A stretch of DNA of 37,592 bases, taken from the NCBI GenBank assembly GCA_016201195.1, contig JACQDI010000021.1, forward strand, positions 1-37,592, read 5' to 3'. The notes beneath the pieces were generated by a model that was given only the letters and a program-made list of their open reading frames with translations, did no database searches and was not told where the DNA came from. Every line of letters starts with the position of its first letter. Within the stretch, counting starts at the first letter, position 1. This document shows positions 23,291 to 26,660 of this stretch, piece by piece. The position numbers and the translations under genes are program-made. The stretch comes from Acidobacteriota bacterium. GTDB taxonomy: Bacteria; Acidobacteriota; Terriglobia; Bryobacterales; JACQDG01.

Positions 23291-25066
23291 TCACTCGTCG
23301 AGCCATCGCAAAGAAACTTCCTTGAGATTCATCACCGCGGCGCCGGGTTTGCTGAGGGCTTTCACGGTCAGCGTCGATCTGCCGGCTTTCAGCGGGAACC
23401 GGCCGAGCCGAAGTCGCGCCCAATGCATTTCGGGGTAGACGTTCTCGGGAATGACGCATTTGCTCGGTTTGCGGGTCATCGGGGTGGGCTGTGTGATCGT
23501 GGCCTGGAGACTCTGGCCCGCCGCGCTGACAGCAATCTTTGCGCCAACGTCGCCTTGCGGGCAGAGATAGCTGAGCGTGACTTCGTACTGGCCGGCGCGA
23601 ACAACGTCGATGTCCCAATACACGGAGTCTTCGAGGCGGTTCCAACCGGTGATCCAGTCGTGCGCGTATCCCACCCCGCCGTGGAATCTTAGGGCGCCGT
23701 GAAAGTAACTCTGCGGGGCCGGCAGGATCACCGGGTTTTCTTCGGCGTAGCCGGCGGGAATCGGCCGGCGGTGGAAACCCCGCTCGCCGAGAGCCTCGCG
23801 ATACCAGGCTTCGTAGGCAGACCGCAACTCCGTTACCTTTTGCGGATGCTTACTGGCGATGTTGTTCTGCTCGACGGGGTCCACGATCATATCGTACAGC
23901 TCTTCTCCATTAACCAGATTGAAGCGTTGTGTTCGCACGGCGCCGGGATACATGGACGCGGGGTCCTCCAGGCTCTCGCGGTGCGTGAAGACCATGCGCT
24001 CAGGCCAGTTTTGCCGCTCGCCGAACAACAGCGGCCGCAGGCTGCAGCCATCAATCCGCAGCCCCTTCGGCTGGACGACGCCACATAGATCGAGAAGAGT
24101 CGGGAAGACGTCAATGTGAGCGGCGATTGTGTTGACGCGCTTGCCCGCTTCCAGACGCTCCGGCCAGCGGATGAAGAATGGCGCTCGCACGCCGCCTTCA
24201 TAAACGCTTCCCTTAGACCCGCGCAGGCCCGCGTTGAACCGCCGCCCATTGGGACCGTTATCGGTCAAGAAAATCACGATCGTGTTCTTGGAAAGACCGA
24301 ACTGATCCAGCCGGGCCAGCAACCGGCCGATGTTCTCATCCAGGTTGGTGACCATTGCGTAGACCGCGGCCGTGGTCCCCGGCAGTCTGGCTGCTTCAAA
24401 AGGGCGGAAATAGGATACTGGCACCTGGAAGGGAGAGTGGGGCGCGTTGTAGGCCAAATAAAGAAAGAAGCGCCTCTCGCGGTTGCCCTCCAGGAACCGG
24501 ATCGATTCGTCGGTGAGCGCGTCAGTGACATATCCCTTGGTCTGGACCGGCTTGCCGTTGCGCTCCAGCTCGGAATCGAAATAATTCATCCAGTGTCCGG
24601 TGCGGAATCCCACAAATTCATCGAATCCCTGGCCATGGGGGAGGTAGGGGTAATGCTCGCCGAGATGCCATTTCCCGAACAGCGCGGTACGGTATCCGGC
24701 GCCGCGGAGAGCTTCGGCGATAGTGGTCTCGCCGGTATGCATGGTTTCCCGGCCGTGGGTCACGCCATAGACGCCGCACCGCACGTTGTAACGTCCGGTC
24801 AACAGACTCGCGCGCGTCGGCGCGCAGACGGGGGAGACATAGAAGCGGGTGAACTCGACCCCCTGGCGGGCCAGCTTATCGAGGTTCGGCGTCTTCAGGT
24901 GCGGATTGCCGTGCAAAGAGAGATCGCCGTAGCCCTGATCGTCGCTCATGACGAGCAGGACGTTGGGCGGCCGGCGGGTTTGTCCCGAGCCGGGGGCTGA
25001 TAGAGCCATGGTCCCGCCTGCCAGGGCCGTCATCCATTCGCGTCGGGTGAGATTAGGACTCTTCAG
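23291..25066 (-). CDS. Cys-type (formylglycine) sulfatase, probable Tat substrate; start codon uncertain
   Basis: LLVMSDDQGYGDL...SPVCAPTRASLLTGRY (C-x-P-x-R). The first ATG (25033) falls inside a twin-arginine motif (LTRREW-M-TALAGG). The only plausible upstream in-frame start is CTG at 25066, which overlaps the preceding stop as CTGA. Confidence 0.85.
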   Translation of the reverse strand: MKSPNLTRREWMTALAGGTMALSAPGSGQTRRPPNVLLVMSDDQGYGDLSLHGNPHLKTPNLDKLARQGVEFTRFYVSPVCAPTRASLLTGRYNVRCGVYGVTHGRETMHTGETTIAEALRGAGYRTALFGKWHLGEHYPYLPHGQGFDEFVGFRTGHWMNYFDSELERNGKPVQTKGYVTDALTDESIRFLEGNRERRFFLYLAYNAPHSPFQVPVSYFRPFEAARLPGTTAAVYAMVTNLDENIGRLLARLDQFGLSKNTIVIFLTDNGPNGRRFNAGLRGSKGSVYEGGVRAPFFIRWPERLEAGKRVNTIAAHIDVFPTLLDLCGVVQPKGLRIDGCSLRPLLFGERQNWPERMVFTHRESLEDPASMYPGAVRTQRFNLVNGEELYDMIVDPVEQNNIASKHPQKVTELRSAYEAWYREALGERGFHRRPIPAGYAEENPVILPAPQSYFHGALRFHGGVGYAHDWITGWNRLEDSVYWDIDVVRAGQYEVTLSYLCPQGDVGAKIAVSAAGQSLQATITQPTPMTRKPSKCVIPENVYPEMHWARLRLGRFPLKAGRSTLTVKALSKPGAAVMNLKEVSLRWLDE

Positions 25067-26250
25067 CGTTGGCCGTCCGGGCGCCGCTTCAGAAGCTCTT
25101 CGGCCGCGCGGACTTGTCCTTCCGAGCCTGCCGCGCGGCGGGCCGCGGCTCCACCGTCAGGGTCGACTTCCCAACGCACGACATACTCCTGCGTGACCGG
25201 CTTGCACCACTTCTCCGAGCAGGCAAAGTAGCGGAAGACGATCCGCGCGGGCTCCTTCGAGTTGCCGCGGTCGGCGTCCACGAGAAACTCCCGCGGGTCC
25301 GCGTCGGCCTCCGCCTCCACTTTCGGTCCCTGTCCTTTGCTGGGCGAAATCTGGACGCCCTCGGGGGGATGGAACTCGTACTGCACGGGGGCTACCAGAT
25401 TGTTCCAGTGCACGCCATACAGCGGGTCAAGATGAAAACCGAGGTAGAGCTTCCCTTTGCCGGAGCGAAGGAAATTCCCATCAGCCTCGACACGCGGCTT
25501 AACGTAGAATGGCTCCTTGCTCTTTTGAAGCTGGGGCTCGATCCTCAGCGCCAGGTACCGCTCCGGGAGCTTGACCCGCGGGACGATGCCCGTAGGAGCA
25601 TGCTTCGGCGGCGGCTCCACCTTCAGGTTGAGGTCCGACACCTTGGTCGGGTTCTCCACTGGCCCCACCAGCTTTTCCAAGTCCTTGCGCAGGGCGTCCG
25701 GATCGCTCCAGCCGCGCTTGCGAACGATTTTGCCCTCCGGATCGAGCAGGTATTCCGAGTTGGGAGCATCACCAGTGGCGTGCTTGAGCTCGTTAGACAT
25801 GGTGTCGCAGACCCAGGGAATCTCCGTGCCGAGCGTGCGCCGGGCTTCCTTGATCTGCATCAGGCGCTCCTCGAGGGTGACCGGCGTGACGTAGCCGTGG
25901 AGCTCAGGGTGCGCCAGCGCCTTATACAAGTAGAAGAATTGAACGCCCTTCGGCGCGTAATCTCGATAGACCGTCTCCAAACTGGGGACGTTTTTCCGGA
26001 AGGGCGGTCAAGTCAGGCAGCCGTTGACGATGACTGTGTACTTCCCCTTGAGGCTTCTGGTGTTGAACCGCTTGCCCTCGGCATCGTGAATGTCTACCTC
26101 GGGGAAGTGGTCACCCACTTTCAGGCGGAACGCCTGAAACCGGTCCTCCAAAGCCTCCCGTGCGGACTTGCCCTGCGTGGGTTGAGCCAAGGCCACGCAT
26201 ATCGTGGAAAGGGCTGCAAGGAGCGCCGCTGCAGTTTGCGAGAATCTCAT
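25063..26250 (-). CDS. Secreted iodothyronine-deiodinase-like thioredoxin-fold protein with in-frame UGA (candidate Sec at codon 26010..26008) fused to a DsbD-alpha-like domain
   Basis: ATG at 26250 lies 7 nt after AGGAGG and gives the signal peptide MRFSQTAAALLAALSTICVALAQP. The frame reads ...KGKYTVIVNGCLT-TGA-PPFRKNVPSLETVYRDYAPKGVQFFYLYKALAHPE...LEERL...PWVCDTMSN...EYLLDPEGKIVRKRGW...LRKDLEKL. TGA is the only interruption: it is followed by nine sense codons, then the TTG at 25980 listed as the start of the next ORF, in the same frame. The C-terminal ~200 aa end in FRYFACSEKWCKP, which resembles the DsbD N-terminal domain. Confidence 0.7.
25969..26010 (-). promoter_or_regulatory. Candidate bacterial SECIS hairpin starting within the UGA
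   Basis: mRNA U-GACCG-CCCU-UCCGGA-AAAACGUCCCCAG-UUUGGA-GA-CGGUC. Lower stem: 26009-26005 pairs with 25973-25969 (5 Watson-Crick bp). Upper stem: 26000-25995 pairs with 25981-25976 (4 Watson-Crick bp plus 2 G.U). The 13-nt apical loop contains GU at +22/+23 from the U of UGA. Confidence 0.4.
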
Positions 26251-26252
26251 GT

Positions 26253-26660
26253 TCACCTCCTGTATTTCTGTCTGTTCCTACCTCTCGGGCCTGCTCGCCA
26301 GAGTTCTGTGTTTGCAAGACGCCACACTACCCAGCCGCGCCGCAGCCCCGCCGACTCGATCCGATCTTTGATCCGGCGGATCTCCGCTTCCGTCCATGGG
26401 CCCGGGGAGCGGCCGACATCGCTCGAGCGCGGGATGACGCGGCCCGCCGGCGACCAGGTGGGAGCACCAGGGCCGACCATCGTCACCCACTCCACCCCCA
26501 TTTGCCGAATGAATGCCAGCGAGGCATCGGAAAGGTCGAGCGCCCGCAGTGTGAGCTTGAGCTCGCCCTCCAGAGTCGCCGCCGCCCGCAACACTAGCCT
26601 GCTACCGGTCGCGGCGCCGATGCTTTGCAACAACCGTCGTCGGGACACTTGCGCTGGCAT
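26253..26660 (-). pseudogene. 5' fragment of a Tat-exported TIM-barrel enzyme gene (UxuA / xylose-isomerase-like)
   Basis: MPAQVSRRRLLQSIGAATG (Tat motif) followed by LDLSDASLAFIRQMGVEWVTMV...WTEAEIRRIKDRIESAGL. The sequence then degenerates and stops after about 135 codons, directly on the RBS of the next gene. Full-length relatives have about 350 aa or more. Confidence 0.4.

Follow-up and report, generated by a model that had tools for sequence, protein, structure and literature searches.

A conserved 19-nucleotide hairpin downstream of an in-frame UGA as a probable SECIS element in an exported thioredoxin-fold gene of an Acidobacteriota bacterium

The locus

The stretch of DNA considered here, referred to as the window, comprises 37,592 nucleotides (nt) from an Acidobacteriota bacterium (assembly GCA_016201195.1, contig JACQDI010000021.1, positions 1 to 37,592). 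Its minus strand carries the gene of an exported thioredoxin-fold protein, and the reading frame of this gene is interrupted by a UGA. It is argued here that this UGA (26010-26008) is very probably read as selenocysteine (Sec) within the motif C-L-T-U and that a hairpin situated 17 nt downstream, at +21 to +39, is a short bacterial selenocysteine insertion sequence (SECIS). A first-pass annotation, made from the sequence alone, had proposed a SECIS-like stem-loop here with another structure, namely a 42-nt fold beginning inside the UGA. Throughout the text, the U of the UGA is taken as +1, so that the window coordinate equals 26011 minus the position. The features are as follows.

25063 to 26250, minus strand: putative selenoprotein gene, formed by the open reading frames 26008 to 26256 and 25063 to 25980, which lie in one frame and are joined via the TGA
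26008 to 26010, minus strand: in-frame UGA, predicted to be read as Sec in a CxxU active site; the TGA column is conserved, with cysteine (Cys) elsewhere
25991 to 26007, minus strand: 17-nt spacer, +4 to +20; coding only, with no RNAalifold pairs
25983 to 25990, minus strand: 5' arm of the candidate SECIS, C21 G22 U23 C24 C25 C26 C27 A28; C25 lies opposite A35 as a C.A mismatch
25980 to 25982, minus strand: apical loop G29 U30 U31; a 5-nt loop A-G-U-U-U if the pair A28-U32 is open
25972 to 25979, minus strand: 3' arm of the candidate SECIS, U32 G33 G34 A35 G36 A37 C38 G39; the core pairs are kept
25969 to 26010, minus strand: stem-loop of the first-pass annotation; possible in this one sequence, neither conserved nor favoured in context

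The gene starts at an ATG at 26250, directly preceded by AGGAGG, and stops at a TGA at 25065-25063. The predicted product begins with a signal peptide, continues into a thioredoxin-fold domain with GCLT-U-PPF and ends in a C-terminal beta-sandwich with a conserved Cys pair. Around the Sec, the translated read-through is ...VIVNGCLT-U-PPFRKNVPSLETVYRDY...

Conservation of the in-frame UGA

Orthologues were sought in 301 genomes of the same order and in a metagenome scan with an alignment, which gave 491 relatives, 80 of which were fetched. A single-protein scan of genome contigs had found 6 loci only, and the order-wide and metagenome scans supplied the rest. The genomes of that order yielded 31 full-length orthologues with a single TGA each, and 3 Cys forms. 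Over all 119 loci bearing the motif, TGA stands at this column in 113 and Cys, as TGT or TGC, in 6. The TGA-carrying loci span at least two phyla, and their TGA is aligned with a Cys of a CxxC-type motif. For the comparison of Sec and Cys forms, the Cys set was enlarged to 10 distinct sequences via database matches and a slightly wider motif. The Sec forms were represented by 98 distinct sequences in a 75-column alignment (A2), and a second alignment held 102 sequences in 135 columns.

Changes were counted as minimum numbers on a tree built from the downstream protein with the hairpin excluded. Both flanks of the TGA were found to be under in-frame purifying selection. From the UGA to the next possible start, the wobble (third codon) positions change 19-33 times. 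At the first three codons after the UGA, the first and second positions change 0-5 times, and two amino-acid-variable codons reach up to 22 changes. The stretch from the UGA to the hairpin thus changes like coding sequence that continues the upstream frame, and this speaks for read-through. The UGA almost certainly encodes Sec.

In some relatives, a shorter second copy sits a few kb from the intact gene, or a fragment of it is present, with extra TAG stops (G133:C3:5157414-5158025, G093:C1:5470979-5471551 and G131:C4:70183-70893). These are probably decaying duplicates.

The conserved hairpin

The element downstream of the UGA is a 19-nt hairpin (window 25990-25972) that reads CGUC-C-CCA / GUU / UGG-A-GACG and forms seven base pairs with a single C.A mismatch among them. 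RNAalifold, when applied to the 98 Sec forms, returned a single consensus structure, at columns 36-54, and it is this hairpin; on the 102 sequences and 135 columns of the second alignment, it returned the hairpin again and nothing else. Among the 98 Sec forms, 87.6% of the cells are paired, with the C25.A35 column counted in, and not one of 500 shuffles came up to the alignment in pairing or in covariation. With the 3' partner shifted by 1-3 columns, the pairing falls to 27-51%. Between 96 and 98 of the 98 sequences retain the pairs 22-38, 23-37, 24-36, 26-34 and 27-33. The composition of pair 21-39 is CG in 60, GC in 10, UA in 4, GU in 2, AU in 1 and UG in 1, and that of pair 23-37 is UA in 92, UG in 5 and CG in 1. 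The C25.A35 mismatch becomes a U-A pair in 26 of the 98.

The energy of the window hairpin is -7.8 kcal/mol, both for +16 to +45 (z = -1.89) and for +19 to +41, and the 98 Sec forms average -8.3 kcal/mol. In contexts of 30 to 160 nt, its pairs have probabilities of 0.88-1.0.

Selection at the nucleotide level

The wobble positions of the stem are almost frozen. Those at +24, +27, +33 and +36 require a minimum of 1, 0, 0 and 1 changes on the tree, as against 11-33 changes at all other wobble sites from -30 to +90 and 20-33 in the spacer (+6, +9, +12, +15 and +18). Similarly, G29, the conserved guanosine of the loop, changes once among 97 sequences, though its codon encodes S, R or G.

Codon choice tells the same, with usage in the same genes as background. 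Within the hairpin, GTC is used in 96 of 97 cases (background 0.40), CCC in 72 of 72 (0.28), TCC in 26 of 26 (0.19) and GAG in 97 of 98 (0.58), and all 90 Leu codons are TTG (70) or CTG (20). At the codon of G29, AGT is found in 48 of 48 cases (background 0.09), AGG in 30 of 33 (0.07) and GGT in 16 of 16 (0.17). Rare codons (AGU, AGG and UUG) are thus held constant in the loop and next to it. For the Pro, Phe, Arg, Val/Ile and Tyr codons in the flanks, variation is about that of the background.

The hairpin also separates the two forms of the gene. All five core pairs appear in the minimum free energy (MFE) structure of 93 of the 98 Sec forms, and none of the five appears in any of the 10 Cys forms. 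One Cys form (L162) has the peptide N-V-R-S-L-E-A, spelt with GTG CGC AGC CTA, and lacks the structure, so the peptide does not force a hairpin. Codon choice, changes on the tree and the Cys forms together establish that the hairpin is not a mere shadow of the peptide N-V-P-S-L-E-T.

The selenocysteine machinery

The genome is a metagenome-assembled genome (MAG), 81.5% complete and in 1,026 contigs. It encodes selA, selB and selD, which score 552.8, 336 and 174 bits, respectively, and each exceeds its curated cut-off. In five of five complete relatives, a tRNA-Sec is found at 66-76 bits; four of these carry a Sec orthologue and one (G037) the Cys form. In the MAG itself, the best matches to the tRNA-Sec model RF01852 are tRNA-Ser, tRNA-Met and tRNA-Trp. 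A 96-nt 'tRNA-?(Arg|Pro)' reported by ARAGORN at G000:C608:5065-5160 was considered as tRNA-Sec and rejected for its malformed fold and two-base anticodon.

Comparison with known SECIS elements

For bacterial SECIS (bSECIS) elements, the consensus of the bSECISearch model of Zhang and Gladyshev, as summarized in a figure legend, allows 3-9 nt for the loop and 4-16 bp for the stem (PMC13188914, Fig. 2 legend). Within the first two positions of the loop there is a G, in most cases in the pattern N1-G-[G|U]-N-N2, where N1 pairs with N2; the UGA-loop distance is 16-37 nt and the MFE -7.5 kcal/mol or lower (PMC13188914). Against these values, the +21 to +39 hairpin has a loop of 3 nt (GUU) or 5 nt (AGUUU) on a 7-bp stem, its A-G-U-U-U follows the N1-G-[G|U]-N-N2 pattern, and its UGA-loop spacing is 24 nt (+4 to +27), or 25 nt with A28-U32 closed. 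The energy threshold is passed marginally, with -7.8 kcal/mol when flanks are included and -6.2 for the bare 19-mer. The hairpin lies directly 3' of an in-frame UGA that is aligned with Cys in homologues. Nothing essential differs from the consensus so summarized. Peculiar to the present element are a conserved C.A mismatch, replaced by U-A in about a quarter of the orthologues, and a stem GUC[C/U]CC...GGAGAC that is near-invariant in Acidobacteriota and Planctomycetota, beyond what the summarized model requires. A stem so nearly frozen across the two phyla may point to horizontal transfer of gene and signal as one unit, or else to a SelB contact of unusual sequence specificity.

The hairpin is thus conserved, selected at the nucleotide level, restricted to Sec forms and in agreement with the consensus. 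It is very probably an ordinary consensus-type bacterial SECIS in a deiodinase-like/TlpA-like CxxU selenoprotein family.

The SECIS of E. coli fdhF has a loop GGUC at +22 to +25, a bulged U17 and a minimal hairpin that starts about 11 nt after the UGA, together with a dispensable lower helix that includes the UGA. Both elements have a G followed by U or G in a small apical loop and a G/C-rich stem downstream of the UGA, and SelB tethering is presumed for both. Unlike in fdhF, the loop here lies at +28 to +32 and the stem base at +21, an internal C.A mismatch takes the place of the bulged U, and there is no conserved lower helix containing the UGA. The hairpin is, therefore, not of the fdhF type: it has no bulge, its loop is placed otherwise and its spacer measures 17 nt.

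A paralogous thioredoxin-fold selenoprotein gene of the deiodinase-related family, with the in-frame TGA in VLVFGSYT-U-PPFRREVPALN, lies in the same genome outside the window (G000:C613:1715-2188, L014). Its hairpin, GC-CGGGA-GGU-UCCCG-(C)GC, presents an A-GGU-U loop at +21 to +23, an arrangement common to eleven relatives (L037-L047). As in the window gene, the hairpin follows U-P-P-F and has a G/C stem with the same apical loop A-GGU-U. It differs in that the loop is eight nucleotides nearer to the UGA, and its stem, GCCGGGA/UCCCGCGC, contains a bulge and is unrelated in sequence. A single SelB would presumably read both genes.

Bacterial deiodinase-like and other thioredoxin-fold selenoproteins, whose SECIS elements have a conserved loop G, were described in a study of the Sargasso Sea (PMC1088965). 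The window protein shares with the deiodinase-like and Prx/TlpA-like bacterial selenoproteins the thioredoxin fold, the Sec in a redox motif, the Cys homologues and the SECIS loop G (PMC1088965, PMC13188914). Unlike them, it has an extra beta-sandwich of about 200 residues with C-x4-C, and most of its homologues, though not the window protein, have EF-hands.

A probable mode of action

SelB binding and Sec insertion at this locus are proposed by analogy with the E. coli system. SelB, together with GTP and Sec-tRNA(Sec), would bind the upper stem and, in the apical loop, G29 with the base next to it. When the A site of the ribosome holds the UGA, the SelB-bound hairpin would sit just outside the mRNA entry channel. 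SelB would then deliver the Sec-tRNA, with release factor 2 as its competitor. A ribosome in this position would have melted about +1 to +13, a region that covers the 5' halves of both stems drawn in the first-pass annotation.

Evidence against the SECIS reading

Several observations weigh against the reading of the hairpin as a SECIS. The stem base lies 17 nt from the UGA, farther than the roughly 11 nt of fdhF. As a single sequence, the hairpin beats shuffles only modestly, 11 of 200 folding as well, and the bare 19-mer falls short of the -7.5 kcal/mol threshold unless dangling ends are counted. Covariation is found mostly in the outermost pair 21-39, which is unpaired in 20 of the 98 Sec forms; in an independent-pairs test of this pair on the tree, the direction was always right, with 2-6 contrasts on supported branches, and the result was not significant. 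The case, therefore, rests mainly on the freeze of the wobble positions, the contrast between Sec and Cys forms and the consensus fold. Rfam at gathering thresholds gave no SECIS family in the whole window. At E values of up to 10, the region 25900-26080 gave only a chance 10-bit SAM-SAH match and again no SECIS family. Lastly, tRNA-Sec was not found in the MAG, either with RF01852 or with whole-genome ARAGORN, at a completeness of 81.5% and with 32 tRNAs detected.

The 42-nt fold proposed earlier

The first-pass annotation had quoted the minus-strand RNA from 26010 to 25969, and the quotation, UGACCGCCCUUCCGGAAAAACGUCCCCAGUUUGGAGACGGUC, is correct. It had paired GACCG (26009-26005) with CGGUC (25973-25969), and these pairs can indeed form (G2-C42, A3-U41, C4-G40, C5-G39 and G6-C38). 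So can those between UCCGGA (26000-25995) and UUUGGA (25981-25976), with 4 Watson-Crick and 2 G.U pairs (U11-A35, C12-G34, C13-G33, G14-U32, G15-U31 and A16-U30). The 13-nt loop, A17 to G29, is closed as drawn and holds G22 and U23; these two bases, however, sit in the 5' arm of the conserved stem. For the isolated 42-mer, RNAfold gives an MFE of -10.3 kcal/mol, and the structure is this fold plus one extra pair.

A fold of this energy is no better than chance. Dinucleotide shuffles of the 42-mer have a mean of -9.78 kcal/mol (z = -0.22), with 73 of 200 reaching its energy. The first-pass annotation had suggested folding 25950-26020 against shuffled controls; this gave z = +0.32, with a different fold as the MFE structure. 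In contexts of 60, 102 and 160 nt, the partition function gives the drawn pairs probabilities of at most 0.08. Among the 98 Sec forms, 65.2% of the cells are paired as against a shuffled mean of 65.6%, 425 of 500 shuffles equal or surpass this, and covariation shows no excess. Pairing is lost in 87 of the 98 at 14-32, in 60 at 15-31 and in 57 at 16-30, and in 29-42 at the pairs of the lower stem. Where the window has UUC-CGG-AAA, most orthologues have UUC-AUU-CGU or UUC-CUN-CGN. No conserved pairing involves the UGA. The annotation had named in advance two outcomes that would speak against its fold, namely a shuffle-like energy and absence from other TGA-containing forms, and both were observed.

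The fold also departs from three of the four bSECIS constraints, namely loop size, loop G and spacing: its 13-nt loop AAAACGUCCCCAG exceeds the allowed 3-9 nt and starts with AA, and its UGA-loop spacing is 13 nt instead of 16-37. A SECIS-type hairpin does exist within 25969-26010, as had been supposed, but the conserved one is the 19-nt hairpin at +21 to +39 and not the drawn fold. The earlier interpretation was thus right in kind, with a conserved UGA, a thioredoxin fold and selA, selB and selD, and wrong in structure.

Alternative explanations

That the 42-nt fold is nevertheless the functional SECIS is extremely improbable. In the isolated 42-mer, it is the MFE structure (-8.8 kcal/mol as drawn versus -7.8 for the conserved hairpin there), and its G22 and U23 match the loop positions of E. 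coli fdhF numerically. These points are outweighed by its shuffle-level energy, its low probability with flanks, its lack of conservation and its failure on consensus loop size, loop G and spacing. The wobble sites within its arms vary freely, C38 and G39 are needed by the conserved hairpin as well, and a ribosome on the UGA would occupy its 5' half. A related proposal, that the conserved hairpin is joined by a lineage-specific lower helix into a composite element, is hardly more credible. The helix could be G2-A3-C4/G40-U41-C42 or a perfect 8-bp complement, CGCCCUUC (+5 to +12) with GAAGGGCG (+60 to +67), which spans window 25944-26006 and encloses the candidate SECIS. The long-range helix does appear in the MFE structures of the 101-160-nt contexts of the window, and fdhF has its dispensable lower helix with the UGA. 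It was rejected all the same, since its wobble-site pairs occur at chance in the 102 orthologue sequences (9-63 in 45, 12-60 in 38 and 6-66 in 66) and the P-P-F and P-K-G codons account for those of its pairs that are invariant; moreover, RNAalifold does not predict it. The lower helix pairs 2-42 and 4-40 show no covariation.

The hairpin might also be selected for something other than SelB: it could, for instance, pause translation, stabilize the mRNA or control internal initiation at the UUG/AUG of L/M-E-T-V. Gene callers do start the frame at the UUG/AUG at +31 to +33, inside the hairpin, and a GGAG is present in the stem. This GGAG, however, lies downstream of the putative start, nothing resembling a Shine-Dalgarno sequence is found at +18 to +25, and the nine codons from the UGA to the putative start show the evolution of coding sequence read in the same frame. 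Pausing and stability would be needed equally by the Cys forms, yet the hairpin occurs in 93 of 98 UGA forms and in 0 of 10 Cys forms, and its loop has the SelB-type G[G/U] pattern, as in the C613 paralogue. Such a role is, therefore, very unlikely, though it is the most likely of the alternatives. The least likely is that the TGA is a true stop, of a split gene, a pseudogene or two adjacent genes, with the hairpin as a by-product of amino-acid and codon constraints. Public annotation agrees with a stop, as nearly all the database entries start after the TGA, and the tRNA-Sec missing from the MAG would fit as well. A true stop is hard to reconcile with a TGA held at one column in 113 loci of at least two phyla and aligned with Cys, with in-frame purifying selection on both sides, with stem wobbles frozen and rare codons fixed beyond amino-acid constraint, or with selA, selB and selD in the genome and tRNA-Sec in relatives.

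The encoded protein

The product scores above the Pfam cut-offs for AhpC-TSA (PF00578, 29.3 bits; cut-off 26) and Redoxin (PF08534, 28.7 bits; cut-off 26.6). It remains below those for iodothyronine deiodinase (PF00837, 18.4 bits; cut-off 27) and the NCBIfam model NF038285, deiodinase_rel (49.6 bits; cut-off 250). Animal deiodinases have the motif C-T-U-P-P-F, which the T-U-P-P-F of the window protein resembles. It differs from the deiodinase models in these scores and in its motif C-x-x-U, which is like the CxxC of ResA/TlpA.

The AlphaFold (AF2) model of the product has a pLDDT (predicted local distance difference test) of 84.4. Foldseek matched it to ResA/TlpA-type thiol-disulfide oxidoreductases, with template modelling (TM) scores of 0.8-0.85 by target length, and to the catalytic core of mouse DIO2, with a TM score of 0.75 by target length. 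The whole model can be aligned with 2HYX, a two-domain structure of the C-terminal part of DipZ. Because of these matches to ResA/TlpA-type proteins, DipZ and the DIO2 core, the Sec would occupy a CxxC-type position, as C-L-T-U.

The C-terminal half (window 25063-25700, residues ~230-370) holds the beta-sandwich domain, with the invariant motifs DPLY.VHWNN and DADPREF and the conserved Cys pair YFAC..WC. Some homologues have a precomputed match to PF11412 (DsbD N-terminal-like). The conserved Cys pair, the PF11412 matches and the 2HYX alignment suggest that, in the modelled protein, the beta-sandwich may be an electron-relay partner domain for the CxxU site. In most homologues, one to several EF-hand motifs follow the beta-sandwich (P0003, P0006, P0026, P0033 and others in alignment A1). 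The window protein has no EF-hand and ends in a short low-confidence tail instead.

A sulfatase gene lies directly downstream of the putative selenoprotein gene (window 23291-25033, minus strand). A sulfatase gene also adjoins the Cys-form homologue P0005 (loci L163/L164), a protein with a fused esterase/lipase domain. This neighbourhood may represent a functional link or may merely reflect sulfatase-rich genomes.

Family and annotation

A database search returned more than 1,000 related proteins, and among the best 120 listed, nearly all start after the UGA. The public starts are placed at the UUG or AUG at +31 to +33, the L or M of (L/M)ETV (P0003-P0121), and so lie inside the candidate SECIS (window 25972-25982). 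The annotated entries are thus without the whole thioredoxin-fold domain and the CxxU, and are labelled 'hypothetical protein' or 'EF-hand domain-containing protein'. No dedicated NCBIfam model was found for the family, and literature searches for the exact protein family in Acidobacteria or Planctomycetes gave nothing specific. It is conceivable, and proposed here only tentatively, that these proteins form an exported selenoprotein family without a name of its own, defined by a TlpA/deiodinase-like thioredoxin fold with C-L-T-U-P-P-F, a C-x4-C beta-sandwich and usually EF-hands; representatives of the 'deiodinase-like' and 'Prx-like' families lay outside this comparison.

With the present analysis, a plausible RNA fold of a single sequence is corrected to an element preserved in evolution. 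The putative SECIS is now defined precisely enough to be tested, by its stem 22-27/33-38 and its loop G29. Furthermore, a large exported redox family of soil and marine Acidobacteriota and Planctomycetota appears to be systematically annotated as truncated. Correct annotation would bring back to these proteins a whole thioredoxin-fold catalytic domain with its predicted CxxU site.

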